From Azolla caroliniana (taxonomy: Eukaryota; Plantae; Polypodiophyta), in NCBI GenBank assembly GCA_043228905.1, contig JBHGNT010000022.1, positions 5,146,001 through 5,210,000 on the forward strand: a stretch of 64,000 nucleotides of DNA, read 5' to 3'. A model generated the notes under the pieces. The model did not search any database, had not been told where the DNA came from, and saw nothing but the letters and a program-made list of their open reading frames with translations. Every line of letters begins with the position of its first letter. Position 1 is the first letter of the stretch. Below, piece by piece: positions 1,077 through 47,251 of this stretch. Made by a program: the position numbers and the translations under genes.

Positions 1077-1107
1077 TGGAAGATGAGAGACTATGTGTGT
1101 GTGTGTA

Positions 1108-1161
<54 letters not shown>

Positions 1162-3635
1162 AAAGTGTATATGATATTAACAAGACAAAATACATTCAAC
1201 TGTTAACTAAGTTACAATGAGTTGGTTTATATACCAACTAAGCTAGGGCAAGCGCCCTTTTTGCTATTTACAAAACTAGCCTGGTATGTCCATAGTGTGA
1301 ACCTATTCCTATGGGAAGTTGAGTTCGATTCTCAACACGCCCCTTCGAACACAACTTCCATCTGTTCGGCGTACCCTCAAGCTTGGCAAGGTAGGCGACA
1401 TGAGACCAAGATCCGATGTGAATTGCCCGAGCTTGTCTACTCCTAAGGCCTTCGTAAATATATCAGCAACCTGAAGGTGAGTGTTGATATGTTGGAGATC
1501 GATTTCTCCGGTCTATATGCGCTCGCGGATGAAGTGGTAGTGTACTTCGATGTGTTTAGCCCGCGCGTGAAATACGGGGTTGCGCGCCAAGTAGACATTG
1601 CTCATGTTGTCGCAGTACAGGCCTTTGATGGGAATGCCCAGATCCTTCAGTACGCGCTTAAGCCATATGACTTCACATGCGGCGACTGCCGCGCCCCTGT
1701 ATTCAGCTTTCGTGCTCGATAGTGCGACTGTCGACTGTTTCTTGCTGCTCCAGGAGATCACTCTGCTGCCGAGGGAGAAGACGAATCCGAATGTGGATTG
1801 TCTATCTGCTTTGTATCCTGCCTAGTCCGCGTCTGTGTACCCTTCAAGTCGAATGGTCGTATTCGACTTATACAAGATGCCATAATCCATTGTTGTGCTA
1901 ACATACCATAGTATCCTCTTAGCGTAATCGAGGTGAAGGTTTCTTGGATTCTGCATGAATTGGCTAAGTAGGCCGACCAAATAACTGAGGTTGGGTCGCG
2001 TAATGGTTAGGTAGATTAGACTGCCGATCAGTTGATGATACTGAATCGACTCGCTCGTAGCCGTGCCGGAACTAGCATCGATCTTGAGATTACGTTCAAG
2101 AGGGGTAGTCATAGGTTTGCACTCTGTCATTCCGAACTTGTAGAGTAAGTTGAGAATGTAATGCTGTTTTGAGATCATTATCTTGACTGGTGTCCGAATT
2201 ACTTCAATACCTAGAAAGTAATGAAGTTCGTGCAAGTCCTTCATTTTGAATCTGCCAAAAAGAAGTGATTTAACTTTGTTAATCTTGGCGAGATCCTTTC
2301 CTCCGATAACCAAGTCATCCACGTATAGAATGATGACTATCGGGCTATCCAACTCATTTCAGATGTACAGAGATGTATCAGATTTTGACATCCGAAATCC
2401 GGCTTGGTGAAGATACTGCGTGATCTTCGAGTGCCAAGCGTGGGTGCTTGTTTGAGGCCGTAGAATGGCTTCTTGAGTCGGCATACGGCGTGCGGATGAT
2501 TACGCGTTTCGAATCTGGGTGGTTGTGTGATATACACCTCTTCTTCTAGCTCTCCTTGGAGGAAAATGTTTTTCACGTCCATCTAATGGAGGTGCCACCC
2601 TTTTGCTGCTGCTAGCGCGATTACGGTTCGTACTGTCATCATCTTTGCCATCAGAGCAAAGGTTTCTTTGTAGTCTATGCCGTATGTCTGTGCGTAGCCT
2701 TTTGCAATGAGCTGTGCTTTGAAGTGATTTATGGAACCATCAGCATCGTGCTTCACCTTGTAAATCCACCTGCAACCAATTGGTTTCTTGTTCGGGGGGT
2801 GAGGAATGAGATCCCATGTCTCGTTTTTGCATAACACTTCCATCTCCTCATTCATCACGTTGACCCATCACGGATCCTTTGTGGCTTCGGAAAGCGTTTC
2901 CGGTTCCCGTATTGACGCTACCTTCATCATGAATGTGTAATGATACGCCATGTACTCGTCGTAGCTGTAGCGGTTTGCGGGGTTCTTCTCACGCGTAGAT
3001 CGGTGTGGCTTGTCATTTGCGGATTCTAGGGGTTTCTTCACGCCGTCCGTGGGGATGTCAAGGCCTTCGAACTCATTGTCGAGATCAAAATTATCTTCAT
3101 ACCCCTGCATTTTCGCCTTGCCTTTGTCTAGCAGTGAACTTGGCTGAGATGTGCTTTCATCACTTGGGGGCTCTTGTGGTCCGCTTAGCCATGTCAAAAT
3201 TGGACTTTCGGCCAACGATATAAGAATAGACTTCCCATTTGAGTGTTCATGGTGATTTCTTCTCTGTAGATGGGCCGGTTCTGTTGATCGTCGGCATGCA
3301 GCACAACATGCTTGATCAGGCAACCACTCGCTCTGATACCATGTTAAGAATTGAGTCTATGGTGATTGCAATGCAATGGAAGATGAGAGATTGTATGTGT
3401 GTGTGTGTGTAACAACAGAGAGAAAGAGAGATAGAGAGCTCAAGAGACAGAGATAGACAAAAGTGTATATGATATTAACAAGACAAAATACATCCAACCG
3501 TTAACTAAGTTACAATGAGTTGGTTTATATACCAACTAAGCTAGGGCAAGCACCCTTTCTGCTATTTACAAAACTAGCCTGGTATGTCCATAGTGTGAAC
3601 CTATTCCTATGGGAAGTTGAGTTTGATTCTCAACA
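1077..3635 (-). mobile_element. Ty1/copia element with gag-PR-INT deleted (RT/RNase H only, degenerate)
   Basis: 5' LTR 3342-3635 (TG..CA); truncated 3' LTR 1077-1337 with the same sequence; tRNA-iMet PBS 3330-3341. Frameshifted RT ([30 protein letters not shown]) and RNase H (SWSSKKQSTVALSS, KHIEVHYHF) in ORFs 1513-2858. Confidence 0.9.
3330..3341 (-). promoter_or_regulatory. Primer-binding site, tRNA-iMet
   Basis: Minus strand TGGTATCAGAGC directly adjacent to the LTR at 3342. Confidence 0.9.
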
Positions 3636-5145
3636 AATTTCATGGAGATTAGGTTGATTTTGGATCCATGGTTGATCAACACCACCTCTAGCTCTTTTAT
3701 GTCCCCGATCCACATTGTTGTCGCCCCAACCCAATGTGGCCTTGTGCAGTAGCTATGCCCATAGTCTTCTTTGGCCTCAAACCCATCTGTTGCCACCATG
3801 TTTATGTTCATGGGGCTTGCACCGTCTAGATTAATTGAGTTTGAGTCTTTTTCTCTTTATTAGGTAGATGATAACCTCGAAGAATTGTTTCTTGGGTATA
3901 CCAAGGGCATCCAGTAGAGTGAACTCTACCCAACTACTAGGGACCCTTTCCTCCATCACTTTCTACAGGTTTGTTGCTTGTTCAATCTCTAAGAAAAGCT
4001 TGAAGTTTAGGGGTTTGATCTTCTAATCCATCTATCGTTGCGTGCTAGGGCTGGGTTTGGCTCTTCCCTTCTTTGTGCACCCCAAGTGTCATATTTCCTT
4101 GATGCTACAACTCCTTGATCATTTCCTTCTCTCTTTTCTTCAACATCACTTCGTAGTTTTGGTACGTGGCTTCTACTAAGCCCGTCTTCTCTTCTACCAG
4201 ATCTCTCCATCCGGTTGCCTCTTCGACCCTTCTCTCTACTTGATCTCCTTCTTCCTTCTGGTGCATTCCCTTTTGGAGGCTTCCAAGGATTGATGGCCAA
4301 AAATCGACCTCGTTTTCTTCTTAGCTCCTTACAACTTTTCCCAATTGTATCCCGACTGATGTTGAGGAGTGGATGACTTCGACATCCAATGCTTCAACTT
4401 CCTTGATTAGCCTCTTCATTCCTCCTTGACCTATGTTCAATTGCACATGGTACCTTGTCTTCGTCAAATGGACCCTGTTGCCCACAAAATAGACTATGTT
4501 CCTTCGTAAGGCCTCTTGGAAGTCTTCACACTCCCTTCGTAGGTGGTCGGGGTTGTCACACTACATGCATCTTTGTGCTATTGTAGGATGATGATCTTGA
4601 GGGAGCAACCCACCTTCTCTCCTTGGTTGTGCTATGTGGAGGTTTCACACCATCTTTGTGAGTTCTTCAATGGCCAATCCTCCTGCCGATCCTTCCACCA
4701 CATTTCATAAAATGTTTCTCGAAATCTTGAAGTATTGAACAATAATATTTCTCCCCTTCCCAAGAAGCTCAACCCAATCCATTAGGTATTTCTTGGTCAA
4801 TGACACGGAGTCGTCTCTAAGTCCATGCTCTTCAAGTGGCCCTGTCTTGAACTCCGCCATGTCGCGGCTCTCCGTAGTCATATCGAGTATCTCCCCATGG
4901 AGAATTGGTGTTACAAGTCTCGTAAAGCCACTCAGTTGCCTAATCAACATCGTGGCTTTGTATACCTCTAGGTAGCATGAGGCATCATTTCGATTGAAAT
5001 GGCCCGTCGTCCCGATGACCATCTCTATGGCTTGGTCTAGGCTTGCCGTTTTCTCCCTTTCTTGCATCATCTTGTCCATGGATATATCCATCATTGGAGC
5101 GAGATCCTCTCTATACGAGTTATGTGCAGAAGCTCTGAGAAACAA
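3636..5145 (-). pseudogene. Degenerate Ty3/gypsy gag-protease remnant, related to the 10100-17514 element
   Basis: EVVLINHGSKINLISMKF parallels ALIDHGSEINMMSSEF (12758 ORF). GHFNRNDASCYLEVYKATML parallels GIFEGINLTRFLKIYNEEML (11061 ORF). Confidence 0.7.
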
Positions 5146-5328: not shown

Positions 5329-6818
5329 TGTAAAAGTTAACGTGTGGAAGCTTGTAGACACAACCGAAAACAGAATGAAGGTTTAATGTAAAGCGTCAAA
5401 TACACAAAGAATGCACAGGAGAGATAGAGAGAGGTGAACACACAAAACTATATTCAAAATACTCTATGGACTCAGTACATACAAATGTGCTTTAGAGAAC
5501 TTTTATACAAGTCCTTAAAAGGACTGATAGAAGTACTAACAAGTACTTCAATGCTCGTACTGAGCTATGACACTAATTACTAGAACAATAACTACCTAGT
5601 AGACTAGGAGAGTAGGCCTCCAATGGCCTACCGGTTCACACATGGGTCGGGCTCCTGGCTTCTTTGCCAGATCCTGATCATGTTGAGCTTGCTCGCTCAA
5701 CACTCCCCCTCAAGTTCAACTTGAGGCCAGATTGTGGTCTCTGTGTCTGTCGGTCCTTTCCTTTGGCTCCTCCTCAAGACCCACTTGCGTAGGAAGTGGT
5801 AATGCAGTTATATGTGCTTTGTGTGATCATGGAACATGGGGTTAGTGGCCAACTGAATGCTACTTATGTTGTCGTAGTACATTGGGATCGAAGTCGATAC
5901 TTCGATCCAGAGGTCTTGCAGCAGCCGTCGAAGCCATATGGCTCCTCTGTACTTACCCTTAGTGCTTGATAGAGCCACTGTTAGCTGCTTCTTACTGCTC
6001 CACGCAATAGTCACGCTACCAAGAGAGAACATAAAGTTGGATGTTGACCGAAGATTTGACGCATCACCAACCCAGTCGGCATCTTTATAACTGACTAACT
6101 TTTTGGTTATACCGTGTTGGTACAATAGTCCCCTATCCTTAGTGCTGCTCACGTATCACAGTAGACGATGCACACACTGAAGGTGGTCGACGGTTGGTTG
6201 TTACATGTATTGATTGATCACCCCGATTGGATAGTTGATGTCGGGTCGGGTGATAGTAAGATATATTAGGCTTCCAACAATTTGTCAGAATCGTTTCTCG
6301 TTGTAGGCCGGTTCAGAGTCGGGACGTAGCTTCTAATTCTGGATGTTGAGATTGGTCGGCAATCCATCATGCCGAACTTGAACAACATATTCAACACATA
6401 GTGTCTTTGTGACAACAATATGCCATCGGGGATGTGGATCACTTCGATCCTGAGGAAGTAGTGAAGATTCCCTAGGTCCTTCATCTCAAATGATGCCGCA
6501 AGTTGACACTTCATGTAACCAATTTCCTCTAGGTCGGCGCCGATGATGACTAAATCATCAACATAAAGTAAAAGATTTAATGACCCATTCCAACCTTCCC
6601 GGATGCAGAGTGAAGACTTCGACTTGGATGTAGCAAACCCCATCCGACGTAGGCACTACGTGATCCTCGCATTCCAAGCATGCGGGGCCTGCTTTAATTC
6701 ATAAAAGGACTTCTTCAATTAGCATACTCCTGAAGTATTCAATCTGAACTGAAATCTGGGTGGTTGCTCCATGTATACCTGTTCATCAAATTCTCCTTGC
6801 AGAAACGGGTTCTTCACA
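5329..6818 (-). mobile_element. Truncated Ty1/copia element (3' LTR, RNase H, RT)
   Basis: LTR 5329-5702 (TGTAAAAG..CTCAACA), PPT 5703-5714; RT/RNase H ORFs 5808-6643 (LLYVDD, AWSSKKQLTVALSS). Confidence 0.85.
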
Positions 6819-8090
6819 AGGCTTCCATTTGCCATGTGAACTTGATAGATATGATCACTTGCGTTTATATGGAGTTCCATTTGTTGCACAAAGTGATCAT
6901 TAAGAAAATTGTGAGAAATCAAACAAGAAATCTTCTTGTGTTCCATTAATATACCCGATTGCCCGGAGTAAATCATTAGGTCCAAGTAGATGTGAAGGAA
7001 AAGTGCATTCACATGAACTTAAGTGGTTGTTATGAACTTCAACAACATCAAAAGACTCACCTGTGTGACTCGTAGATTTGTCTTGAGGAGGGGTGTTCAT
7101 TGACTTCCTCTCAAGACGATGACAGGTATCCTTTGTGTGGCCCCACTTCTTGCAATATGCACAAAAGAGGTTAGGTTTCTTGGAGTCGCAGTCAAGAGTG
7201 TCTGGATTGCTTACGTTTCCCAATGAACTTGACATTCGGAGTTTTGGCAAACTCAAGTTTATTGTGGTCTTTCTTGGAAGTCCTATGGTACCGAAGTACA
7301 ATGTTGACGGCTTCCTCGAAAGTTGTGGGGTCTTTGTCATGGACAATCCAATGGTAATCCCCATTGGGAATACCATTCAAAAACCAAGCAACAAAACATT
7401 TCTCACCCATAAGTTCCGACTTTTGGATTTGGGTCCGAGCATGATGCACATAATCCTCGAGAGAGGTAAATGGCTTAATCGACAACGTGAGCAAGTGTTG
7501 CGCTTGTTTAGTTTGGGAAGGTGGTTGCAAAAACTGTTTCTTAAAAATATCAATGAAACCTTCCCAAGTTGTGGGTAAGTTCTTTGCAGTCCTTAGGACG
7601 CGCCACCAAGCAGCAGCCCAGCCACCTAACTCACGAACGACGTAACCAATTTTTATAGCATCGGGCTTGGGGTGGAGCTCAAAGTGAGACTCCCAACGAC
7701 CAAGCCAAGTTGTTAATGGCCTCCTCGGTTCTTTCTTTCTTATCTCCCTTGAATGGCGTTACTACGAAAGAAGGCTCACCTTCTTTCTTGGACTCAATAG
7801 TCAATTCTTGGAATTTCTATTCCAATGCCATATTGGCCTACCTGATTTCGTCCAATTGATTCAAGGTAGTAGTGAGCAATTGCTCAATAGTGATCTTAGC
7901 TTGTGTGTGAGATGCGGATTGGAGTTGAGAGGTCTCGGTCGGAGAGATTGCTCCAACAACGTTCAAAACTTGTTCCATGATGCAAGCTGTGGGTATGCAA
8001 TATAAATAAGGAGGTTCAGAAAATACACAAGCAAAATGAATGCTTGAAATTTTGATTGTAAGAACTTTACCAAGAAAGCATCTCACGTCT
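6819..8090 (-). pseudogene. Ty3/gypsy gag-protease remnant
   Basis: Retrotransposon gag-like ORF 7192-7530, CCHC knuckle CAYCKKWGHTKDTC, protease-like segment FLFD..NDHFVQQMEL..VHMANG. Confidence 0.7.
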
Positions 8091-8882
8091 TTACCCCTCT
8101 AGACATATGAGATGTGATTCAAGATCCGATAACTATGGTAACACTATGGTGTTTTAAAAACCATGGGGGAAAACATAGCTAAGATGTTTTTCTCGGATCT
8201 CTATCTTGAATAATCATGGCGGCTCCCCGAGGCTCAACCATGGTTCTAAACATCAACGTACTTTCCTAGTTAGCCTTATATTAAAATGCCAACCCAACAT
8301 GTATTGATATGGTCAAGAAAGTGTATTACGTGAAAAAACAAGTGCACTCGCAAGTAATATTCTAGTCTTGCAAGTAACAAGCAAATGTTATGACAAAAAC
8401 GATAAACTAAGGCACCCATAAGAATCAAGCAGTGACGAAAACAAGGGTAAAAAAACCCATGTGTTACCTACTAAAAAAAAAATTTGTCACAAATAAATGG
8501 ATGGTGCGAGGTATGCACATATACATCCCAATATGGTGGTTGTAATTTGCACAATTGTGACATAAGCCACAAATTGATACAAGTGGCGGTGGTGTTGTGC
8601 GCAAAGATGTAGAACTCAAATCTGTGAGTAAAACATCAATAGGGTAACTCATGTGGTTTTACTCGAGTTCTAAGGCTCGATAATATGAGTTAAACCTAGA
8701 TGAGTCGTTAGAAAAAATCGTTCAAAAAACGGCATGATGCCCACTCAATATTAAAAAATAGTCTACATGAATCGTTACACCATTAAACGTACGTAAATAG
8801 TATAGATGAACTTAAAATAAGGGCAAGAAAGAGAGTTAATTGTGGGTGGGTAAATGACAATTACTAGAAAATCATAGAAAAG

Positions 8883-10099
8883 TGTTCAGAATTAGGTAAG
8901 TAATTAAGCAAGGATTAATTAGTACCTAATTATGTGATTAATTGATAAGCGAAAGATTAAGTGATATGTGTGTATGTGTGTGAGAGGAAGAGAGAGAGAG
9001 AGAGAGATACACATATGAACAACACAAGATGGGGGATGAGTAAGTATATTAAATTAGCATTATCATCATCATCAAATACAAAAATACCCACAATGAGGTA
9101 TATATACATCTCATGTGCAAAGGTGCACATGTGTGAGTGGAATATAGGTACTAAGGTGTAAGTCCTATATTAAATGTACTTAGGAGTGGAGGATCTAGAA
9201 TATCCTACTTAAGTACAAGGTCCTATTTAAGGCGTTATAGTCAACACTTCTAATTAGATTCTATCTACGTAACTACGAAGTTACATGATTGACTAACTAA
9301 CTAAACTAAGTTGAGCTTGATTTCTCAACACGCCCCCTCAAGCTCAAGTGTGAGGCGTCCGACATCCGCTTTGGCTTTCGTCAGCTTCGTGTGCTTCCGT
9401 CCAGCCTTCGGCTTTCTTCGCCGTGGGAACCTTGGTTCCTCCTCCTCAGGCCGGTGACGAAGGCTTGTAGCGTGTGGGTGAAGGTCGACTACTTCCACCC
9501 ATCGTGGGTTACAAGCCACTTCGGTGGACCTCTTGGGCTCTTGTTCGCCCGCAACCTTCATCGCGAAGGCGTAATGATGGTCGTATACTCATTGTAGTCG
9601 AGCCGAGTGACAGGATTCTTCTCTCTAGAAGAGTGTCGAAGTTTTTTGCTCACCGATGTGAGCGCCTTATTTGCTCCGGGTGTCTGCATGATGGGTACAC
9701 CGAACTCATTGTCTAGTGAGGGAGCCGACACATCTGAATCACTGTCGTCGAAGTGATCGACTTTGTATTCGGGCATCTCACCTTTGCCTTTGTCCAAGTT
9801 TGTAGTTGGCCGTGATGTGCTTGGGTCGCGTGGGGGCTCCTGTGGCCCACTAGGCCTTGCCGTAATCAGACATTCTTCGAACATGTGTTCAAAGCGATCT
9901 CCATATTCTACCTCTTGTTCGGAGGATTCCAGGTCGAGCGTAGTCGGAGTCGAAGTTGTCTTTGGTGCGTACCAGGATGCGGACTCGTCAAAGACTACGT
10001 CTCGACTTACCTGAACCACTCGGGTAGAAGAGTTGTAGCACTTGTACACCTTCTTCTCATACAAGTATCCTATGAGGATACATTCCTCCGACTTCGCGT
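8883..10099 (-). mobile_element. Ty1/copia 3' part lacking RT/RNase H (LTR, PPT, post-integrase region)
   Basis: LTR ~8883-9330 ending CTCAACA, PPT 9331-9342; ORF 9558-10099 with KSEECILIGY..YKCYN..VSRDVVFDE. Sequence jumps from the start of RT (NPRWVEVV) to the 3' tail. LTR start is approximate. Confidence 0.8.
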
Positions 10100-10160
10100 T
10101 GTCGTGAAGAATGTGCTTCACGATATAAAAAAAAGCTTGAAAATTGTATTTAATAATAAT

Positions 10161-10218
10161 TGAAAGACTTGAACCCACATCCTTATATACGAAGTACAAT
10201 GTACATACCACTAGGCTA
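10161..10218 (-). other. tRNA-like cassette A in LTR (A-box/B-box, anticodon-like TCG)
   Basis: Minus strand TAGCCTAGTGG-TATGTACA-TTGTA CTTCGTA TATAA-GGAT-GTGGGTTCAAGTCTTTC; no acceptor stem; copy at 16683-16740. Confidence 0.6.
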
Positions 10219-10298
10219 GGCTATTTATTTGTAAAAGTTTGTAAAAAAATGTGTTTCATGATATAAGAATGAAGCTATATATTGTATTGAGTAAAATA

Positions 10299-10355
10299 GA
10301 GAGACTTGAACTCTCAACCTTGTATACCAAACACAAAGCATACACCACTAAGCTA
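10299..10355 (-). other. tRNA-like cassette B in LTR (anticodon-like TGG)
   Basis: Minus strand TAGCTTAGTGG-TGTATGCT-TTGTG TTTGGTA TACAA-GGTT-GAGAG TTCAAGT CTCTC-TATTTT; perfect T-arm; copy at 16821-16877. Confidence 0.65.
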
Positions 10356-10607
10356 GGTTAGTTATTTTAGAATACATTTTCATCATTATACTTATCCCAT
10401 ATCTATTTTCATATAGCCATCACGCATCACATGCAATGCATGTGCGCCAAATGGTGATCATGCATTACATGTAACTCATGCATCGCATGCATGCCATGCT
10501 CCCATACATTACCATATGCATGGCAACACTTATATAAAGAGGGGCAAGGAAACAAGAGGGAATCAAGAAGAGAGAGTGAGAAAATAATACAATTAAGAAA
10601 AGAAGAC

Positions 10608-10672
10608 TAGCTCATTGGGTGGAGAACCTCTCGTTTCGAAGTTGAGGTCGTGGGTTCAACTCAAGGGTCGGT
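10608..10672 (+). other. tRNA-like cassette C in LTR (downstream of TATA)
   Basis: TAGCTCATTGG..TTTCGAA..AGGTC-GTGGGTTCAACTC; 3' LTR copy (~17132-17195) has GGTTCAAATC. Confidence 0.55.
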
Positions 10673-11024
10673 AGAGAATGTGTTCAATTTGCGATCAAGG
10701 ATTGTAAAGTTGGTAAAATATTGTTTTTTTTAATATACATCATGTTTATATCAAATACTCTTGCGTCTTGAATCATACTTTGTCTCAATCTTCCTTCTTA
10801 AATCATACTTTGTCTCTATCTTGCTTCTTGAATCATATATTGTCTCTATCTTCTATCTATTCTCATCTCTCTCTCTCACACACATTACTCATATCTCTTC
10901 TTCTTTCTATTCTTAACCTTTCTTACATCACCATACAAGCCTTATTAAAATTTAAGTTCCTTCAACTCCCCTTAACCTTCGTCCCTGCGACTTCGCCGCA
11001 TGAACCACAACTACCCCGACATAT

Positions 11025-11043
11025 TTGGTGAACCTGACGTGAA
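11025..11043 (+). promoter_or_regulatory. Primer-binding site complementary to tRNA-Trp
   Basis: TGGTGAACCTGACGTGAA, 4 nt after the LTR, versus TGGTGAACCCGACGTGAA expected from the 3' end of plant cytosolic tRNA-Trp(CCA) (recalled sequence). Confidence 0.75.
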
Positions 11044-11060
11044 GGCGACAACGAGGAGAA

Positions 11061-13174
11061 ATGGAGGAGCAAATGAGGCTTATGTGTATGATGATGGAAC
11101 GAGTTATGCGGGAACAAGGGATGATGGCAATCATCGACAAAGTCGTCGACAATATTCTCGTACGAGTAGGAATCTTCGAAGGTATAAATTTAACAAGATT
11201 TCTGAAGATTTATAATGAAGAAATGCTTAAACGCGGTGTCGATGAAGCTACAAAAATTAATAGCTTTAGTCGAGTCGCTGCGATTGGGCTACAAGAAAGG
11301 ATCCAGGAGCTACAGAGGGAACATCAGACATGGGCGACTTTCGAAAGAGCATTGCTAAATGAATACAACCTCAATGATATGTCAAGGATTACAAGGCGAG
11401 CTTTCATGGATTGGGTAGAGTCTGATAAACATTTAAATGTTTTGGAAGTGTTAAAAGAGTTTTCAGAAAGGTTTGAGCAATTAAATGTTAGAGATAGAAA
11501 TATAATAATGCCAGATAAAGTAATATTGTTTCTACAAGCTACTAATATTAAAGACAGGAAGGACTTGGGAATGCTTTTAGAAGATCAGAATAGTCCAAGT
11601 GGACTTACCGAAGACTGGGAGGAGGTGAAAAGGGCGTGCGCCCATTTCTACAAAAGAAAGTTATGGTTTATGGAGTTGCTCGACAGAAATGATGAAGAAA
11701 TGGGGAACGAGTTGGGAGAAAAGAAAGTAGAAGAATCGCTCTTACACGAATTGGTGAAAGGCATGAAAGACTTGTTGATCAAAGTGACGAAGCGAGAATC
11801 GGGACAAAGCTCGACTTCATCAAGGCAGGGAGGTGGAATGGTCCGAAGGTGTATGTGGTGGATAGTATCGACCACCAGAAGAAAGATTGTTAAGAGCATA
11901 GGGATGCTCTTAATCATAATAAAATCTACTATCAAGATGGCAAGATTCACTCGACAGAGACTTGACAACCACTTCAACTCAACTTCGGGCGAGGAGGAAT
12001 GAAAAATCTAATGGAAGATGCTGAGAGAGAAATGACTCAAGCGATACAATCCGTGGCAACCTTAGGGTTGCGCGTAGAAGACTCATATGGTGGATCTGGC
12101 TTTTGGCAAGATGTGATGGATTATTCAAGAAAAGGGAAGGTTCGAGTGGATGAATTAAAAAGAGCGGGAGATGAAATACGAAACTTCACTGGATGGAATG
12201 ATCCAGTAGACGCGCTACCAGCATTCGCCCAAGTGAATGCACATGATGTGCTAGTGGAAGAGAAGCGGAAGAGAGCTGAGGAAGCTGATCCGACAAAGAG
12301 ACATGAGACACGAGAACAGAAGAGAAGGGAGATGGAAAAGGGTGCTACTGAGCCGAAGGAAGCTGATAAAGTAAAAGGAAAGAGAGGCCCATCTTTCAAG
12401 CTTGCCTCAGACATAGAAACAACGACGGATATAAAAAAGGTACTAGAAACAAGAATACTAAATAGTAAGGTAGAATTTACTTTAAGAGAAGTGTTGGGTA
12501 TAGCAAAGAAAGAATTTCATGAAGTTATCATAGATATTATTAGAAGAAAGAGACAGGTGACGGAGGAAATTACGGGAGGGTGTGCAGCAACACTCCAAGA
12601 TTTGTATGGTGGCACCATCAATGTTGCAAGTGTAAAAAACCAAAATGATGTTGGCGTCCATGAAGGGGATAGGAGTCACTATACAAGGGACCATTGGGCT
12701 TGAGCAACAACGGAGGCACCTGCAAAAATCGGGGAGCAGCAAATTCCATGTATTGCTTTGATCGATCATGGATCCGAGATTAACATGATGTCATCGGAAT
12801 TTTACGCTCGAGGACGGTGGCCGATTGACAAGAATCATGGGTGGAAAATAAGAGCTGCCACAGAGACTACGGAGGATCTATTCGGAGCATGTCCTAGTGT
12901 GAAGGTAACAATTGGTGATGTGTCGGTGAATCAAAATTTCTTTGTGCAAGATTGATCAACCTACCCCGTCATCCTTGGTCAGCCCTATATCACCGCAGTG
13001 AGGATGGAAACAAAGGTTATTGATGATGGTAAGGCTTTCGCGAGAATCAAGAGTCAAGATGGAAGAAAGACTATCCAATCCTTAACCGTGAGGCCCAACC
13101 ATGAAAGAAACAAAGAATGCTTGAGGGAACATCCAATTCAAGAGATGGATGAAGAGTTTTCCCAAGATTTTTAG
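11061..13174 (+). pseudogene. gypsy gag-protease ORF (disrupted)
   Basis: gag 11061-; CCHC knuckle broken by a frameshift (CMW/DSIDHQKKDC, ~11850-11890); protease LIDHGSEIN..VILGQPY; internal stops at 12703 and 12955; ends at TAG 13172-13174. Confidence 0.85.
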
Positions 13175-16100
13175 ATAGGGCTTTTATAGGTAGGGATTGT
13201 GATAGCCCGGACATGAAAGAAAACCCCATAAATAATAATGTAAATAGAGATATTCTTTGTACAATCTCATCTAGTGGTGCTACTTTTATACTAAAGGCCG
13301 ATAATAATAAAATACAAAATACTTTCGAGTACTTTAAGTATTCTGGATTAATAGATAATGATGAAGAAATTCAGGATATGTTTGAAGAATTAAGTTTCGA
13401 AGATACAATAAGTCATTTGGAAGCAATGGAGGACAAGGAAGAAATTCAAGTTCCTGTCCATTCTATCAAGATGTACGAGGTCATTGAAGAAGTTGCTCGA
13501 AAGGATCATGAGGCATATGTGATGACAAAGTACAAGACAGTGGAGAAGAAGGTTCGTCCTATTGTTGCTCCACTTCCAAGGGATAGTGAAAGGGCAATCA
13601 AAGAAGCAACTATAGAGCCAATTATCAGAGACCCACGAAAGGTAAGACATGCGTTTACTCCGGAAACAATACAAGGGATGAAAATAGGAGGGGGTGACTT
13701 CCTATTACCTGCTGAAGAAAAGCAGTTCAAGGAGATGTTAAAAAGGCATGGAAAGGCATTCGCATTCCTACCAGAGGAAATAGGGTGTGTGGATCCAGAA
13801 ATTGTGGAACCCATGGTTATATTCACTATCCCTCATATTCCATGGAACTTTAAGCCAATACCCATGCCTAGGGCTAGAATCCCTCAACTATTAGAACTTT
13901 TGAAAGAAAAGATAAGGACGGGTATCTTGGAACCATCGAACGCTCCTTACTCGAGTCGATGGTTCACTGTGTTAAAGAAAGATGGGCGACTCCGATTTAT
14001 CCAAGATATGCAACCTGTGAATAAGGTAACAATCCGAAACTCGGGAGTAGGACCAATTGTGGATGAGTTTGCTGAGATGTTTGCAGGAAGAGCTATATAT
14101 TCAATGGGAGACCTTTATTCCGGGTATGATCAATTTCAACTTGCTATCAAAAGTCGAGATATAACTTCTATCAAGACACCTATAGGGTTAGTACGGATGT
14201 GTACCTTGCCGCAAGGAGCGACCAACTCAGTGGCGTATATGATGAATGGAATGAACAAGGTACTTCGTGATTTTATTCCTCATATTACAATGCCTTTTTT
14301 AGATGATGTTCCAATTAAGGGATGCAAGGAGGAAGAGAAGAATGAGGAATTGGACGAAAGTGGTTGCCGTCAATTCGTTGCTGATCATATCAAGGATTGT
14401 GAGAAGGTGCTATCAAGGATGGAAGAAGTTCATTTGACCTTATCAAGGGCAAAGTCAATATTTGGGGCAAAAGAGATATTAATAGTTGGTCATATGTGTG
14501 GCCCGTACGGGAGAAAGCCGTCCCCAACCAAGGTCAATGCAATTCAAAATATGCAAGAGGAATGTACATCTGTCTCAGAAGTACGAAGGTTTTTGGGGGT
14601 ATGTATTTTTTACTGTAAATGGATTCCGCATTATGCCCATTTATCCGAACCTTTATATAGACTCCTAAGAAAAGGAGAGACATTTGAATGGAGTGAAGAG
14701 CATTTAGAAGCAATGAAGATATTGAAGTACTACTTGGCACAAGCTCCACCATTAAAGCAACCAGACTATACCCGGCCCATATATCTCACAGTTGACTTTA
14801 GTCCCATTGGAATTGGATGGGTGATAAGCCAACAAGATAGGGAAGAAAGGTATCCAATCCGATTCAGGGCAAAGGTTCTTAGTGGTTGACAAAGAAAATA
14901 TGCACAGGTGAAAAGAGAGCTATGGGGGATAGTAACAGCAGTAAAGACAAACATAGATTACTTAATTGGTGCTGAAGTAATAATAGAAACAGATTGTTTG
15001 CCTATTCTTGGTATCATAGCTAATTGTGATATTCCAGATCAAGCCATGTTAAGATGGTGTACCTATATTAGATCAGTCAACCCTGAAGTTAGACATATCT
15101 CTGGGAATAGAAATGCAGTAGCAGATATGTTATCAAGAGCAAGGTATAAGGAAGAGGAGATTCCAGTCTCGGACGATGAGGACAAAGAACAAACAGTCCT
15201 TGCCACAAGCATTACCCGAAAAAAAAGAATGCAGTTTCTAGTAGAGGAGTATGAAGAAGAATTCAAGGAAATAGGGAAATACCTACAAACCCCTGACAAG
15301 TACAAAGGTCAATCTGGAAAAGAGTTCGCACAGTTTCGCAAGAAAACCCATAAGTTCATCCTGCATGAAGGATATCTATGGCGACATCCAAAGACCAAGA
15401 CTGGAAACCCGCAAAGAGTAATAGGTTCTGAAGTGCAAAGAAAGGAGGTAATGAGAGAGTTGCATGACAAAGAATGGGCTGGTCAACGAGGATTGTGGGC
15501 CACTTTCAGTAAGATTAAAGAACGGTTTTGGTGGCCTCGATACTATGAGGAAATAAAGAAGTATGTGGGAACTTGTCCCACTTGTCAATATTATTCAAAT
15601 ATAAAATTTTGTGATGAGTTAAACCCAACATACTCACCGGGGGTGCATTACAAGTGGATGATAGATTTGGTAACAATGCCACTTGGAGTAGGACAAAAGA
15701 GATACTTGGTTCTTGCTAGAGAAGATCTAACAAATCAAGTGGAAGGTCGTTCATTGTGAACAAAAGGGACATTAGGAGTATGTCAATTCATCTTGGAGGA
15801 CATTGTTTGTAGATATGGATGTATCGGGAAGATAGTGGCAGATAGGGGAGAACTCAATTCTGCGGAAGCTCAAGATTTTTTCGACAAAATAGGAATTCGG
15901 CTTTCTTTGACAACGGCGTACAATCCAGAAGCTAATGGAAAGATAGAAAGGGGACATGGGCCAATTGTCAAAGCTTTGGCAAAGGCATGTAGAGGACGAG
16001 TTAGTGATTGGCCAAAAATCTTACCCTATGCACTATGGGCTGATAGGACAACTCACAGCACTGTTACTGGATATATGCCTGTAGAATTAATCACAGGACA

Positions 16101-16629
16101 GAAGCCAATAATGCCAATTGAAGAAAAGATAACTACATGGGTTGTGTTGCCTTGGGAATTGGAAATGAGTAGGGAAGATTTACTTGCGATTCGAATACGA
16201 CAACTTCAATCAAGGACAGAAGACATAGAAAAAGCAGCTACTAGATTGAAAGAGGCAAGAATCAAGAATAAGGATAGATTTGACAAGATGAAAAGAATAC
16301 GACCAAGAAAGGTGCAAGAGGGAGATTGGGTATTAGTATATGATAGTGGCCTAGATAATCAATACAGTACTATTCAGAAGTTTGCAAAAAGATGGTTTGG
16401 ACCTTGTGAAATTAGGAAAATAACAGATAAAGCCACATACTTCCTCAATGAATTAGATGGGACAGAAATTCGTATCCCAATTGCAGGAAAAAGGATTAAA
16501 ATATTTAAAAGGAGGGAGTCATTAGAGCCCGATTTTTATGAAGAAGTAGAAATACTAAAAGAATCGGAAGAAGTGTTGGATGAACTCTGCACAACCAATG
16601 TGCAAGTTCAGAGGGGGTGGGTGTCGTGA
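13165..16629 (+). pseudogene. gypsy pol (RT, RNase H, integrase), disrupted
   Basis: RT LRFIQD..DLYSGYDQ..PQGATNS..FLDD; RNase H; H2C2 zinc finger (LHD..CPTCQ); integrase VADRG..NGKIERGH, GPF-like region; stops at 14889 and 15759. Confidence 0.92.
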
Positions 16630-17514
16630 AGAATGTGCTTCACGATATAAAAATGAGCTTAAATATTGTATTTAATAATAATTGAGAGACTTGAACCCAC
16701 ATCCTTATATACGAAGTACAATGTACATACCACTAGGCTAGGCTATTTATTTGTAAAAGTTTGTAAAAAAATGTCCTTCATGATATAAGAATGAAGCTAT
16801 ATATTGTATTGAGTAAAATAGAGAGACTTGAACTCTCAACCTTGTATACCAAACACAAAGCATACACCACTAAGCTAGGTTAGTTATTTTAGAATGTATT
16901 TTCATCATTATACTTATCCCATATCTATTTTCATACATAGCCATCACGCATCACATGCAATGCATGTGCGCCAAATGGCGATCATGCATTACATGTAACT
17001 CATGCATTGCATGCATGCCATGCTCCCATACATTACCATATGCATGGCAACACTTATATAAAGAGGTGCAAGGAAACAAGAGGGAATCAAGAAGAGAGAG
17101 GGAGAAAATAATACAATCAAGTAAAGAAGACTAGCTCATTGGGTGGAGAACCTCTTGTTTCGAAGTTGAGGTCATGGGTTCAAATCAAGGGTCGGTAGAG
17201 AATGTGTTCAGTTTGCGATCAAGGATTGTAAAGTTGGTAATTATATCAAATACTCTTGCGTCTTGAACCATACTTTGTCTCAATCTTCCTTCTTAAATCA
17301 TACTTTGTCTTTATCTTGCTTCTTGAATCATATATTGTCTCTATCTTCTATCTATTCTCGTCTCTCTCTCACACACATTACTCGTAACTCTTCTTCTTGC
17401 TATTCTTAACCTTTCTAACATCACCATACAAGCCTTATTAAAATTTAAGTTCCTTCAACTTCCCTTAACCTTAGTCCCTGCGACTTCGCCGCATGAACCA
17501 CAACTACCCCGATA
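16622..17514 (+). repeat. 3' LTR of gypsy element (893 bp)
   Basis: Direct repeat of 10100-11021 with a ~28-bp deletion; terminal CA mutated to TA. Confidence 0.95.
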
Positions 17515-17518
17515 GCGT

Positions 17519-20486
17519 GAGCCGATCTTCGGCTTCTATCTCTATTTCAGCGGATTCCGGGTCGAGCGGAATCGGAGTCGAAGTAGTCTCTAGTGCGTAC
17601 CAGGATGCGGACTCATCAAAAACGACGTCTCGACTTACTCGACCCTTCCGAGTAGAGGGGTTATAGCACTTGTACCCCTTTTGCTCCAGTGAGTATCCTA
17701 TGAGGATACATTTCTCCGACTTCGGGTCGAGCTATTGTCGCTTCTTGTCGGGGATGTGCATGTATGCAATGGAGCCGAATATCCGAACATGTGATAGGTC
17801 CGGCTTTTTTCCGAAAAACTTCTCGTGTGGAGTAAGTGCGTGCACACCCGATGTCGTACACCGATTCATGAGGTATACGACCGTGTTAACCGCTTCTGTC
17901 CAGTACGACTTCGGCAGGTGCTTTTTGCTTATCATGGCCCGTGCTACTTCGAGGATGTGCCGATTCTTTCGTTCGGCTACACCGTTTTGCTGAGATGTGT
18001 GTTGGCACAAGAATGCTCATCGGATTCCTTCCTTTTGGAGATATGTCGTAAACTCATCCAAGAAATATTCCTTGCCTCCATCTGATCAAAGGCATCGTAC
18101 ATGTCGGCTCGTGGCTTTCTCGACTTCATTTTTAAATTTTTGGAAGTGTCTAAACACTTCACCCTTTTGCCGCATGGGGTAGATCCAGGTGTGCCTGGAG
18201 AAGTCGTCGATGAAAGCCACGTAGTATCGACATCCGTCGAATGTAGTCGTCTAAGCCGGACCCCATAGATCAGAATGGATTATGTCGAGTATGCCTTTGC
18301 TCACGTTTCGCTCCTTTGGAAATGGGTGCCGATGTTGCTTGCCAAATTGGCAAGCAGGGGGCAAGCGGCACACACGCCTTCAATCTCTTTCTCTTTGACT
18401 GTCGGGAGCCCGATGACGACACCTTTCGATTGCATCACCTTAAGCTTTTGAAATATGATATTGCCAATCCGCTTGTGCCATAACTCTATGTCGGAGTTGG
18501 CTTTCGTGCCTTTTGCGAACATGGCCGATTTCATCTCGTGTGAGTCGAGAATGAACATTCGGCTCTCTTCGTCCGTGAGCGATGAGTCAGCCCTCTATTT
18601 TGATGAAGCAACCGCCTTGATTAAATCGTATTTGCATGCCTTGCTCAACAATTTGGCCGACGGAGACCAAATTCTTCATAATGGTCGGTACATGCAAGAC
18701 ATTCTTAATAAAATTTTGGTTACATTCTTTGCCGAATGGGACATTGCCGATGTGTCGAATCGGATGCGTAGTGTCGTCTTCGATCTCGACATAGCCAGGT
18801 CAGTCCGGCTCTCCAATTTCTCGGAACCATTCTTGATGAGATGCCATATGGTTCGAGGCACCCGAGTCGACGAACCATATGTCTTCTGAACTAGATGCGT
18901 TATTCGAAGTAGAAGCCGACATAGAATTTTCTCTATGTCTCATCACGAACATTCCGCCATGATCGTCATAGTCAGAGTTGGTGGCGTAATTGGTGAGTTG
19001 TCGACTTGTGGAAGCCGACTCGCGCATCTTCTTACGACACTCTTCTTTGTGGTGACTGATTTTTCCGTAATATCCGCATACAATCGAGTTTTTTCGGCTT
19101 GGACCGGAATGGAAGCTCCCCCTTCTTCCGAAGGTTCCTCGATGGCTTCCGTCTTGATGCCAAAATTGCGAGTTGTTTTCGTAAGTCGGGCCTCGTCCGC
19201 CTCGTCCTTGGCCGAATCGGCCTCTTCTTGCACGGCCGCGTCCTCTTCCTCCATCCGAATGTGAGTAAATCATGTGTCCTTCCGAGGCGTTGCTCCTTGT
19301 TCGAACATGGTTTTCTTCAACCAACAACATGGATTGAAGATCGAAGAAGGAGGGCGGATTCTCCCGTGCTAGTACAACAGTCCTCATCACGCCGAACCAT
19401 GGTGCAAGGCCGCCGAGGCATATTTGCACCATCTCATCATCGTCCACATTGACGATTATCGAGCCGAGCGAGTCGCAAATGTCCTTGATCTTCAAGGTGT
19501 AGCTCGTGATGGACATATCCCTTTGTTGGATGTTGTTCAACTCTTGGCAGAGTTGAAGCTTTCTCGCGGTTGTGTTGGCAGTGAAGATCTTTCGTAGATT
19601 CTCCCACGCTTCCTTTGGTGTCTCGACTTCTCGAATGTAGTCGTGCATGTGGTCGTGAACACATGTCGCCAACCAATACATCACTCGACTTGCCGCTTGC
19701 TCCCATGTTGCGTAGTCGGCGTCTTTCGGATCGAGTCGATTTTCTTGTGCTCCTTTGATGTAGCTCCAATAGCCTTGTCCGACAAGGTCTTGGTGCATCT
19801 TGTACTCCCAAGATGCAAAGTTGCTTCGATCTAACTTCTCGTTAGTGAGAGTGCTCCCCATTTGAGTATTCATTGTGGATGAAGGTGTCTTTCTTATTTT
19901 CTTTTCCTTCTCTCTTGAATGTGAGTTATGTAGTCGCACTACGATATCGATGGACCGGTTGTTCTCAAACGTCGGCGTAGAACACAACACATGCGGATGG
20001 GCTAGATCGAGCTACCAAACCGCTCTGGTACCATGTAAAGAATCAGATATGATTCTTGTGTAGTGGAAGAGATGTGTGTTATGTGGGAGAGAAAAGAGAG
20101 AAGAGAAGAGAAACACGAGATAGATAAGCTAGAGAAATGAAATACTCAAGAAGAAGAAGATGTATATTCACAAGTAGAATAGCAAATACAAAATGTAGCA
20201 TTACAAGGAGTCACAACCGACTTAGTATGAAGTATGAGGAGGGTGCTTCATATATAGCCAACCTCTCTCTTCATTAACTAACTACAACAACCACTCTCTC
20301 TTGGGGAATGTGAAGACTCATAGTCATGGGGAATATGTAACTCATTAGTTATGTGTCATAGAATATGATTCTATGACACATAGTTAATGTGTAGAGAGTA
20401 ATTGTATGACTCATCACCTTTGAGTAATCATAGATTCTCAAAAGGTGTGTTCACACGTTGCACTATGTTGCGCTTGATTCTCAACA
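17519..20486 (-). mobile_element. Ty1/copia 5' part (LTR, PBS, gag, PR, integrase)
   Basis: LTR 20034-20486; PBS TGGTACCAGAGC 20022-20033; gag EKLDRSNFASW, knuckle remnant, WFVDSGASNHM; LWHKRIG; QQNGVAERKNRHI. Confidence 0.9.
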
Positions 20487-31356: not shown

Positions 31357-34058
31357 TCATGATTTTGATAGCTTAACTTGATGGATTCTTGTTATGTACA
31401 CATTCTTCATAGTCTCTTTAGAGTTGTTCAATAGGTGGCATAGACCCCCTTGTTCTTGCTTACCGAACCCATTTCTCAAACTCTGTATCAAAAGGCATCT
31501 GAATGAAGAAAATGTACAGCAATAAACAAAGGATAACTAACTTTCACGTGTACAACTATGGGAAGAATGTAAATATAACCAACATTTTGGGAAAATCTTG
31601 AGGCTACCCTGAGGTTTTGTTTATTTCCCCGAAATGCCCTTAGTTAAACCCTTGAAAAGCCGAAGAAACGGAGATGAAGTTTGACCCCATATATTTTCTC
31701 AAATAGCACAAATCATTGCTCATTCGAGGAGCTGACCACCGAGGGGAAACAACAAAAACTCAGGGGTATGTCAAAGTGTTTCCCACACCCTTTTCTTTTT
31801 CTTTACCTGGTTTGATATGCATTTGCATTGCTCCGGATGCCAATGAACAGGAAAAAACTCTGAAACAATGCCGAAGTTTAGCGTTTATTAATCGATAAGT
31901 CCAAGATTGTATTCTGGTGTTCTATCTGCTCTTATCATTGTACTAAGAAAGGTTTTAAATGACAAGATAAGCAGTTCAACATGAAGCAGTCTTGCTGTTC
32001 TGTCTTATGATATATTGCTACATACCACTAAACCTTTCAATGAAATGTTACTGCATTTCTGGTAGATACCCATAAGACTAAAGATTATTTTTTAAGAGAA
32101 CTTTTTTTCTCCTCCTGCATGCTTGCAGCCTAAGAATCCCATTCACATAAGGAATCAACAAGCAAACATTACACCATATCAAACACTTACTACATTCATC
32201 ATAGTTTTAATGAAAATTATAGGCAGGCCTTCTTTTCTGAGTCATTCTAGCCCCCACCTAGAGTAAAGACCAAAAACAATCCAAGTACAAGGAAAACAAA
32301 ATAAAGGGAGCCCAATACTAAGCTTAACAAGCAACAGATCTTCACCTTGACGAAGGAAACCAAAGGTAGCTGATGCGTTTCTCCTTTAATGTCTACAATA
32401 TCCTGAGCTATCGCTTGAAGTAGTTTCAAGTCTTTGTCCTCTTTAATCAGAGAATCTATAGCTTGTTTCATCAACAGTCTTTCTTCTTTGAGGACCGTCA
32501 GTTTTTCCTTAAGCTTAAGGCTATTCTTCCCATCTTCAATGTCTTCTTTTCGAGTGCACTTTACATCTGTTAGGCTTGAATCGAGTGATAATGGGTCTAA
32601 TGCTTTGGGATTATCACGAAGAGTTTGATTTTCATCAGGTAGCACGATTCCTTCCTCCTCCTCAAATCCTTCATCTTTCTCATGACCATCTTTCTTGTCA
32701 TATTCTCTGTCAACAACTAAATTGGAATGCTGAACAAATGGTATATCAGATGTTTCATATTTGACTTCATACACATCATGTACACGTTCACCGGCATCAC
32801 TAACCTCTGCTATTGATGCTTGACTATGAAAAGCTTCATTTATATTCATACCATACCCTTCACGATCTGTTGAAGAAGGATCACATCCTTGCTTGGCATC
32901 TTTATTGATTCTATCATATGCCAAATCTTTCAAATTTATACTTACTAATCCCCGGAGTTTGCTCTTCACAGAATCCTCTGCTAGTTTCACCTCTTTATGC
33001 GCTTTAGAGCACTGTGTTTCTTTCTTAAGTTCTTCTTCCAAATAAGAATTCCATCTCAGTTCATCTGATGCAAATGCATCTTTTGATGTTTCCTGTTTCA
33101 ATCTAAGTTGATTGTTAGAATAAAGAATTTTAGCATTTTGCATACACTGAAAACGTTCCTCCAGGCGTTTCACACGAGCTAAAATCAACATACTTGTATC
33201 ATCCAAGATTTCCTCATGATAATGCTTGTGAGTATCAAATCGACAGCCCTTATATTCTGCCTTGATTCCTTCTCGCTCTTCATTTCTCCATAGTGTACCA
33301 CTTGCTACAGGTAACCCTAAACAATCATCTTCTACATTCCTCTTTATGGTAGCATAAATTTCTTCTTCAATCTGCTTTCCATCGCAATTCATTTGGCAAT
33401 AATCATCTAACCGATCTGATATGTTTACACTGTCATGACTGTTAGTTACATTCAAGTCATGTCCAACACTTTCCTCATTAATCATCTGATCAGTTCTACC
33501 TAAGTATATTATTTCACCTTTATTCTCATCCTCCAGTTCGATCGGATCTGTTACTGGCATGCTCATCAAATTTTTCCGATGGGAATTCACATACTTTGGA
33601 TTAGTGTGGCATAATCTCTCACTTTCAAGAAGCGTAATGTGTTCACCATCTCGATTGTCCTGATCTTCTACATTGGACACTGATCGTTCTTGTTCTTGTT
33701 CTGTTGTATGATCTATTCTTAAGAACATTCTTTGGTATGCGCTGATATGATTCTGTAAGGATATCAATTCATCTTCTTTATTTAGGAGTACTTGTTTCAG
33801 AAGAGATATGGCTTCTTGAGTATGTGATTCTCTTTCTTCACATGCATATATATACTGCCGAGCTTCCATTAGAACTGACGATTTCTCTTCTTGGAGCCGA
33901 GTGATCATCGCCATGGCTTCCTCTGCAGCTGTCGCAGCTGCACATCTCTCCTGTTCCAATTCCAAGTAAACCTTGTGAAGCTCCTCTCTTGCAGACCTCA
34001 GATCACAACGTAACCTTGAGACATTGTCCTCGACAAAGCAGACAGGATTTTCTTCCAT
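31357..34058 (-). CDS. DUF593 / zein-binding (GTD-binding) coiled-coil protein, myosin-binding protein family
   Basis: LELEQERCAAATAAEEAMAMITRLQEEKSSVLMEARQY signature; exons 34058-32346, 31859-31807, 31498-31357 in phase; C-terminal LKLLQAIAQ and GLCHLL segments. Confidence 0.85.
31589..31784. mobile_element. Mutator-like MITE in an intron
   Basis: Imperfect ~42-bp TIRs GGGAAAATCTTGAGGCTACCCTGAGGTTTTG / CAAAAACTCAGGGGTATGTCAAAGTGTTTCCC; TSD not clear. Confidence 0.55.
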
Positions 34059-34596
34059 AACAGGAACTGTTCTTCTATGGCTCAGAATTAAATGACCATT
34101 TCTGTGACTGCGACAAAGAACAAAGAAAATGTTATAAATTTGGTCAGATTTTCTTTTCTCCACGGAATAACCGTGTCTGTGGATGACTCAGAGATTATTG
34201 TTGTAATTCTATAGGGGATTATTCCCAAGAAAGAAGCTGCCAATCATCCAGAAAGAAAAAGGAACGCCTAGAGCTGGTTCGTGAACATGTCCTTCCATAA
34301 GGGAACTGAAACCCTATACAGAAAAGCTTTAGAGTTTAGGGCTAGATTTATGGTTTAGAACAAATCTAACGTTTATTCTGCAATTCGTTCAGAAACATCA
34401 GCATTCTCTGTCTGTTTATTGAGTATGAGTGGGGGGATTTGGAAACCCCAGGGATGATGAGAAGCTTCTTTAGAAGAATAGGGAGGAATGGCGGGAGAAT
34501 GAATGTTTTTGTTAATTCAAGAAATGTCAGCTGTTAGGTTTCTTTGTAATTTTTCTGCCTCATTTTTCTTTTTTTTCCTGAAGAAGAGGAAGTAGA

Positions 34597-46030: not shown

Positions 46031-46083
46031 ATTAATTATTCCTTAATGAGGAAAATACAGCAATAAGAAACAAGAATCATACT

Positions 46084-47240: not shown

Positions 47241-47251
47241 ATTACTAATTA

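Follow-up and report, generated by a model that had tools for sequence, protein, structure and literature searches.

tRNA-derived promoter boxes in the long terminal repeats of protein-coding Ty3/gypsy retrotransposons

Protein-coding LTR retrotransposons carry, inside their long terminal repeats (LTRs), promoter boxes that by their sequence derive from tRNA genes, and these boxes recur in several LTR families with like orientation and spacing; we regard this as a real feature. The evidence supports reading the modules formed by these boxes as tRNA-derived type-2 promoter shapes and not as tRNAs. As to what they do, we propose that TFIIIC and TFIIIB dock on their DNA to the benefit of the LTR's own Pol II promoter, a reading that has, in our judgment, roughly even chances of being right. 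Here we describe the modules of one element in a 64-kb stretch of DNA (the window), trace them through other LTR families, and compare them with known elements that carry Pol III promoters.

The element and its three modules

The studied region is the 5' LTR of a protein-coding Ty3/gypsy retrotransposon of 7415 bp (10100-17514; Table 1), whose 5' and 3' LTRs differ by 29 substitutions in 891 aligned columns and by one 29-bp indel. A Pfam scan of its five ORF pieces found the domain order RT-RH-INT and no chromodomain, archaeal RNase H or extra ORF; the closest matches to its Pol are 92% and 74% identical, and the named relatives are mostly Riccia proteins at roughly 46-68%. We presume its primer-binding site (PBS) to be of the tRNA-Trp isotype. 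The 4-bp NCGN target-site duplication (TSD), a polyprotein that fills the internal region and the lack of an extra ORF liken the element to Phygy, for which a 4-bp NCGN TSD in 100% and a tRNA-Trp PBS in 81% of cases have been reported (Neumann et al., 2019, PMC6317226), although at 7415 bp it is slightly shorter than the published range of 7656-9968. We infer that the element is a Phygy-type non-chromovirus; its host would be a bryophyte, probably a moss. The sections on Phygy in that paper that we draw on make no mention of tRNA-like LTR modules (PMC6317226).

The element is surrounded by Copia fragments, and the Copia flanks on its two sides (9895-10099 and 17523-17727) repeat each other over 205 bp at 81% identity, which places a junction between two Copia copies directly to the right of its TSD. 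Elsewhere in the window, an internally deleted Copia element (1078-3637, minus strand), with a PBS presumably of the tRNA-Met type, is nested in a Phygy-type remnant, and its LTR starts with a T-arm-like hairpin. Also present are a palindromic tandem array of 33/52 bp (46079-46687), a MITE-like inverted repeat of 109 nt with 94% complementarity and a 57-nt loop (47214-47601), and a 646-aa ORF with a Zein-binding (PF04576) domain (32247-34187, minus strand) that is likely a host gene among repeats.

Table 1. Positions in the window of the element's features and of two further module-bearing LTRs
Feature	Position	Strand	Details
Target-site duplication	10096-10099 (left), 17515-17518 (right)	+	4 bp, GCGT (NCGN)
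5' LTR	10100-11021	+	TGTCG...CGACA, 922 bp
Module A, antisense, U3	10162-10218	-	A-box 10208-10218; anticodon-like arm 10183-10199; B-box 10165-10175; 3' LTR copy 16684-16740 (first A-box base 16740)
Module B, antisense, U3	10299-10355	-	A-box 10345-10355; anticodon-like arm 10320-10336; B-box 10302-10312; T4 just behind; 3' LTR copy 16821-16877 (first A-box base 16877)
CATG-rich palindromic region, putative Pol II enhancer (predicted function)	10419-10525	+	sequence common to the solo LTR 40390-41553 and the L063/L050 LTRs
Predicted Pol II TATA box	10531-10538	+	176 nt from the A-box of module B
Module C, sense, 77 nt behind the predicted TATA box	10608-10665	+	A-box 10608-10618; B-box 10653-10663; weak arms; 3' LTR copy 17132-17189 (first A-box base 17132)
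Primer-binding site, presumed tRNA-Trp type	11026-11043	+	follows the 5' LTR
gag-pol region	11043-16629	+	five ORF pieces (frameshifts, in-frame stops): DUF4100, RT, RNase H, integrase
Polypurine tract	16610-16621	+	precedes the 3' LTR
3' LTR	16622-17514	+	893 bp
Putative Tcn1-type LTR, first bases missing	37173-37596	-	antisense module 37527-37586, 198 nt from the predicted TATA box
Solo LTR, other Phygy-type family	40390-41553	-	4-bp TSD ACAA; antisense module 40837-40895, 172 nt from the predicted TATA box

A preliminary description of this DNA had reported three modules with an A-box and a B-box at tRNA spacing, and we find its coordinates and motifs correct, all three being present in the 3' LTR as well. 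The strict A+B pattern matches three times in the 922-bp LTR, and one match was reached by 17 of 5000 shuffles and two by 0/5000; across the 64-kb window it occurs only at the 6 places in the element's two LTRs. Modules A and B, antisense in U3, are indeed tandem paralogues (10107-10230 against 10245-10367, 76.8% identical), the duplication unit being about 138 bp long and lying inside U3, with the first unit starting at the 5' end of the LTR. The boxes of A and B differ at 2/22 positions and the remaining sequence at 30/113 (p=0.10). Their anticodon-like arms do form 5/5 pairs around 7-nt loops centred on TCG and TGG, but the substitutions between them, which had been read as pairing retained despite change, are one-sided G-U changes and not two-sided compensations. 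The TGG loop of B would be a Pro anticodon, and the module may resemble tRNA-Pro. Module B also has the 5-bp T-arm followed by TTTT that had been noted. Module C stands in sense orientation downstream of the TATA box, so that outward-facing modules bracket the promoter, the TATA box and the U3/R boundary being predicted from sequence. It is the weakest of the three, with 2/5 pairs in its T-arm and no T4 terminator inside the 3' LTR; T runs lie within 25 nt of A and B, and C meets a T8 at 10724, inserted in this copy, and by 11440 at the latest a T4.

These features bear on the possibility, raised earlier by analogy with Cassandra, that a module is the Pol III promoter of the element's genomic RNA. 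Module C has the sense orientation and a position close to that expected of R, and Helenus LTRs have tRNA-like boxes (PMC10886601); but A and B face away from the element with T runs close behind them, C runs into the T8 and T4 just named, the element is 7.4 kb long and protein-coding, a predicted TATA box and enhancer are present, and for autonomous elements Kojima regards Pol II as obligatory (PMC10886601). The analogy is not supported on this point, and we consider such a use highly improbable.

Modules in other LTR families

A scan of a metagenome collection for the PBS motif yielded 119 loci (numbered with the prefix L) from 15/64 parts; viral contigs gave no match to the pattern. The motif follows an LTR-like end in 73 of the 121 pattern matches; dropped were the 48 without such an end as well as 3 doubtful junctions and 2 duplicates. 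LTR-side regions with a usable start numbered 22 (17 kb), the starts of L020, L061 and L062 being uncertain. A graded motif scan of these regions found modules in L002, L050, L063 and L066, and 105 kb of control DNA gave only two motif matches, both within further LTRs of the 64-kb window. The window's solo LTR is 77% identical to the LTR of L063 and has inserted into a 51-bp tandem array, which occupies about 39950-40385 and continues beyond 41553. The stretch at 37173-37596, with no partner LTR in the window, is inferred to be an LTR of the Tcn1 type, and a second copy of it is L067. It belongs to a Tcn1-type chromovirus remnant (37173-39800, minus strand) in which a cut chromodomain is joined straight to the LTR and the polypurine tract is missing.

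When a profile of 14 modules was searched against the window and 67 loci (204 kb), 16 matches at E<1e-6 were obtained. Besides the 14 seeds these are the copy of B in the 3' LTR and one further module, in L018, whose LTR is complete; every match lies in an LTR or an LTR-like stretch. The best match on shuffled DNA had an E of 1.3. Built without A, B and C, the profile still recovered the L018 module (E 7e-9) as well as A and B, at E values of about 1e-4 to 2e-4, and C only weakly (0.012, 0.028). No free copy of the module outside LTRs exists among the 16 strong matches (0/16, about 200 kb examined). An origin of the modules as inserted SINEs was rejected: they have no TSD, body or tail of their own, and the duplication unit of A and B includes the 5' end of the LTR. 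Since A and B are units of one tandem duplication that starts at that end, they are not two SINE insertions.

Five Phygy-type families bear modules, namely those of this element, of L063/L050 and the solo LTR, of L002, of L066/L053 and of L018, and to these is added the one Tcn1-type LTR. About seven LTR types have no module (L003, a 13-sequence cluster, L025, L057, L061, L020 and the third LTR in L023). Module-less L061 and L025 have Gag proteins 57-58% identical to that of module-bearing L063, and the sister family L066/L053 (RT-RH 83% identical) lacks the U3 module and has two sense modules behind the TATA box; in L066 the second module has lost the C of its B-box and the A-boxes are degenerate. 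In an RT tree, which was built from relatives, four Riccia proteins and, as outgroup, two long rows, a branch with 99/99 support separates 3 elements with modules from 4 without; L063, having no RT in its contig, was left out. The closest U5 relatives of the element are L100 and L112 (78-80%).

When the solo LTR is compared with L063, differences are more frequent in the boxes (4/22) than in the flanks (42/289), and between the solo LTR and L002 blastn matches only the LTR start and the module. The columns invariant across modules are the tRNA invariants that form the internal promoter, together with an AG in the variable loop; the invariance of the box columns is partly circular because the scan demanded those columns, and the AG of the variable loop was not demanded.

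Several candidates were set aside. The modules of L067 and L047 belong to an inserted Tcn1-type LTR and an inserted Copia LTR, respectively, and were rejected as Phygy modules. The B-box-like hairpin at the start of the Copia LTR (near 1336 and 3637, minus strand) has no proper A-box and no profile match, and a degenerate stretch in L017, 262 nt from the TATA box, has no profile match either and does not enter the tally of spacings. Two weak matches, in L095 (E 0.013) and in L023 (E 0.002; partial and left unassigned), were not counted as families.

Other features of these loci deserve separate mention. In most Phygy-type LTRs, a U5 motif about 60 nt before the end of the 5' LTR (L007-L119) has the B-box-like start GGTTCAAGACCCC, often with C at the fourth place, and continues into a GC-rich palindrome, in which respect this element's family differs; the palindrome is possibly an RNA hairpin for priming or packaging. 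L018 (3268-3805) and L023 (about 6480-7490) hold head-to-tail Phygy-type elements that share an LTR, the LTR being followed by a second PBS and gag, and these arrays may reflect tandem insertion or assembly collapse. Although the LTR ends of L002 (841-2802) are Phygy-type, the 431-aa ORF that follows its PBS matches none of the other Gag proteins; L002 is possibly a non-autonomous derivative with foreign cargo.

The outward-facing layout claimed for this element recurs in other LTR families. Modules upstream of the predicted TATA box are antisense in 5/5 LTR types, and modules downstream of it are sense in 2/2 LTR types and also in the weak L095, so the 5' side of a module always faces the Pol II promoter. 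The distance from the TATA box, which was chosen in each LTR by sequence context, to the A-box of the nearest upstream module is 176 nt in this LTR, 172 in the solo LTR, 181 in L063, 163 in L050, 185 in L002, 166 in L018 and 198 in the Tcn1-type LTR; this range of 163-198 nt thus takes in 7/7 LTRs with a clear upstream module (the element being counted once), in U3 regions of 270-890 nt. The first module of L066 lies 177 nt downstream of its predicted TATA box. By their sequence, the Phygy-type cases may all descend from one block of module, enhancer and TATA box: a CATG-rich core is common to this LTR and the solo/L063 type, and the solo/L063-type module is also found in L002. Because the Phygy-type modules may share one origin, their orientations and spacings are not independent counts, and the Tcn1-type LTR, which has a different enhancer, is the most independent case.

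Variation and candidate function

Contigs of four DNA runs (4 samples from 3 studies, representing four related organisms that share 25-36% of the element's words) were aligned to the LTR. They cover all 30 bins of 9900-11400 and all 27 bins of A and B, and within 10140-10380 only 1-5% of the aligned contigs continue into unlike sequence. With A and B fully covered in four related organisms, the modules appear fixed in the family and not confined to a few copies. Variation was counted for A, B and the spacer within 10140-10380 (33 variant rows at 30 positions, share of at least 12%); the low cover of module C in runs X11 and X12 is not used as evidence. Variable positions amount to 0/22 in the A-boxes, 2/22 in the B-boxes (2/44 for the boxes together), 2/32 in the stems, 12/38 in the unpaired inter-box sequence and 14/80 in the spacer, and boxes and stems are less variable than unpaired positions (p=0.0003, all 33 variants). 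Because variants seem under-reported near the ends of stretches, an edge-safe range was used as well, in which boxes and stems vary at 4/51 positions against 12/38 unpaired ones (p=0.005), the boxes alone differ from unpaired positions at p=0.06, and boxes and stems differ from the spacer at p=0.19. In 12 of the 33 variants the letter is the one that the paralogous module has at that place, and these may have been cross-placed; in counts repeated without them, boxes and stems vary at 2/76 against 7/38 unpaired (p=0.006) and 11/80 spacer positions (p=0.018), and in the edge-safe range at 2/51 against 7/38 (p=0.034), with p=0.078 against the spacer. G/C sites vary at 0/31 in boxes and stems and at 9/31 elsewhere (p=0.002), and both B-box variants of module B shift towards the box consensus. 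The module as a whole is no less variable than the spacer (16/114 against 14/80, p=0.55). The suggestion that boxes and stems are better conserved than the rest of the LTR is therefore upheld against loop positions, but in the edge-safe range the difference from the spacer is not significant. The pattern, modest in strength and drawn from depth-weighted contigs rather than from a phylogeny, fits selection on the boxes, for which we take it as moderate evidence, and perhaps on the arms.

The same data must be set against the view that the modules are neutral passengers, that is, captured tRNA or SINE heads that travel with the enhancer and TATA block when these are copied and that now serve no function. 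The patchy distribution, with its seven or so Phygy-type LTR types that have no module, speaks for passengers and against docking; so do the variability of the whole module, which equals that of the spacer, the lack of a common fold, the absence of T4 within 100 nt in three LTRs (see below), and a number of modules that seems to differ among copies (single joints of 10230 to 10107 and of 10226 to 10376 suggest copies with one or three units). Against it stand the boxes and stems, which hardly vary, even at their 31 G/C sites, while the loops do; the single orientation rule and the 163-198-nt spacing, which hold even in the Tcn1-type LTR of unrelated sequence; and the fact that none of the 16 strong matches is free-standing. 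We regard neutrality as rather unlikely, though it deserves serious weight.

A role for the modules as RNA finds less in its favour. All three lack an acceptor stem, as had been stated, and ARAGORN finds no tRNA gene at the LTR. The tRNA-like shape ascribed to the three modules was recovered by an Rfam check of the LTR (9900-11200) for B only, at 22.6 bits, below the cut-off of 29, and over model positions 8-63; the scan of the same interval at E up to 10 gave no 5S match. Rfam also found no tRNA match in 20 related loci (34.7 kb), for which it is too insensitive, since it missed even the clear module of L050. A, B and C fold no better than shuffles (z +0.96, -0.94 and -1.22), and across the 14 modules, in an alignment whose anticodon arm is imperfectly registered outside A and B, 63% of cells are paired as against 61% when shuffled, with 153/500 shuffles as high. 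A T4 lies within 25 nt behind A, B and the L063, L018, Tcn1-type and L066 modules, and is absent at that distance behind C and the modules of the solo LTR, L050 and L002, the last three having none even within 100 nt; by chance a quarter of antisense-U3 positions have a T4 within 25 nt. With no stable fold and no cross-family covariation, the idea of a tRNA mimic as an RNA structure kept across families is not supported.

Short Pol III RNAs, such as antisense U3 RNAs or mimics of tRNA fragments, could still act in trans as decoys or packaged helpers. This would suit the paired arms of A and B, which are kept within the family (2/32 stem positions variable), the full T-arm of B with T4 right behind it, and a switch between A-U and G-C at pair 10312/10302 of B, the two letters of which have matched frequencies in two runs (48/44% and 34/31%). 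The switching pair is, however, also part of the B-box consensus, and neither cross-family covariation, nor a stable fold, nor conserved terminators are found, so that we think such RNAs quite improbable as the use of the modules.

Docking of TFIIIC and TFIIIB on the modules would draw on the boxes as DNA. An ancestral tRNA gene or SINE head may have been captured into U3 with loss of its acceptor stem, then doubled in tandem to give A and B, and passed between families as a unit with the enhancer and TATA block. Once bound to the boxes, TFIIIC would load TFIIIB on the 5' side of the module, facing the Pol II promoter; TFIIIB would be placed between module and enhancer and Pol III would travel away from the promoter. 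The docked factors would keep the Pol II promoter open or shield it against surrounding heterochromatin, and any Pol III transcript would be short and incidental. Yeast tRNA genes are described as nucleosome-free, with TFIIIB loaded upstream of the start site, and mutations of the A- or B-box abolish their barrier function, which seems to require the complete Pol III apparatus (PMC7990762). Plant tRNA genes are reported to rely on the same boxes, to be preceded by AT-rich DNA, and to have a CAA motif as well as T-run terminators (PMC7544208, PMC13578239); our literature search found no test of a TFIIIC barrier in plants.

Yeast tRNA genes repress neighbouring Pol II promoters. The modules might likewise recruit Pol III factors that dampen the LTR's own Pol II promoter and limit transposition to tolerable levels or to stress. 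The conservation and geometry are as compatible with this as with docking in the service of the promoter, and Pol II has to pass C, as it has to pass both L066 modules, so that C could hinder transcription. Selection on a replicating element would, however, normally favour expression, and all four runs show the family at high depth; dampening is in our view improbable.

The furthest-reaching form of the proposal that TFIIIC and TFIIIB dock for the benefit of the Pol II promoter is one we put forward tentatively, as doubtful: that autonomous moss retrotransposons of two distant Ty3/gypsy lineages may independently have gained outward-facing tRNA-gene promoters, about one nucleosome repeat from the TATA box, and may use them to hijack TFIIIC and TFIIIB as a portable anti-silencing device that moves between families and would act in cis as a counter-defence against the heterochromatin of the plant.

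Comparison with known systems

That the arrangement is undescribed, as the preliminary description had it, is true in part: a tRNA analogue of Cassandra is known as Helenus, but the elements described there are only short and non-autonomous (PMC10886601). Our literature search found no account of tRNA-derived modules in autonomous moss LTRs, Repbase lying outside this search. Helenus TRIMs (TRIMp3; Kojima, 2024, PMC10886601) share with this element tRNA-derived LTR sequence, conserved boxes A and B and the lack of a functional tRNA; they are non-autonomous elements of 311-1263 bp, and their tRNA part has been proposed as their own promoter. This element, in contrast, is 7.4 kb long and protein-coding, and each of its LTRs surrounds a predicted Pol II promoter with three modules, of which two are antisense. 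By its LTR-borne boxes A and B it resembles Helenus, and its size (7415 bp) and gag-pol coding place it outside that group. The only plant case of Helenus in the parts of the paper used here is from Selaginella, and moss terms have 0 matches in its supplement (PMC10886601). According to Kojima, 'not a few LTRs' held in Repbase show a likeness to some portion of a tRNA (PMC10886601); because only TRIMs were analysed there, Repbase may hold autonomous cases that were not.

Cassandra and Ajax TRIMs also have Pol III promoter boxes inside their LTRs, but these are of type 1 (5S), the elements are non-autonomous, and Cassandra RNA starts in the 5S part (PMC10886601). The boxes of this element are of type 2 and mostly face away, and the Rfam scan showed no 5S-derived segment. 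Pol III promoters within LTRs have been described for short parasites (Cassandra, Helenus and Ajax), whose RNA they are thought to drive; an autonomous element that retains type-2 boxes aimed away from its own promoter would have another use for them. The mosquito Gypsy element cqgypsy_1 is alike in having tRNA-derived sequence within a Gypsy element, there as SINE-like tandem tRNA copies at the PBS with CCA ends and a 26-nt duplication (PMC3286476). Unlike these, the present modules have no tail, TSD or SINE body, and A and B arose by duplication within the LTR. The parts of the Tcn1 account consulted (PMC2864245) mention no tRNA-like LTR module. LTRs of the kind described here can inflate the calls of tRNA pseudogenes and SINEs in moss genomes.

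If TFIIIC and TFIIIB do dock on the modules, this would show how plant retrotransposons stay active in nested heterochromatin, and it would offer a natural test in many copies of tRNA-type barriers in plants, module-bearing and module-less families sharing one genome. The closest parallel in function would be the tDNA and TFIIIC-bound barriers of yeast, which likewise employ A and B boxes as DNA elements apart from any tRNA product (PMC7990762). Those barriers are host loci in fungi, whereas the boxes here, candidate barriers by their sequence, ride on a mobile element in a plant.
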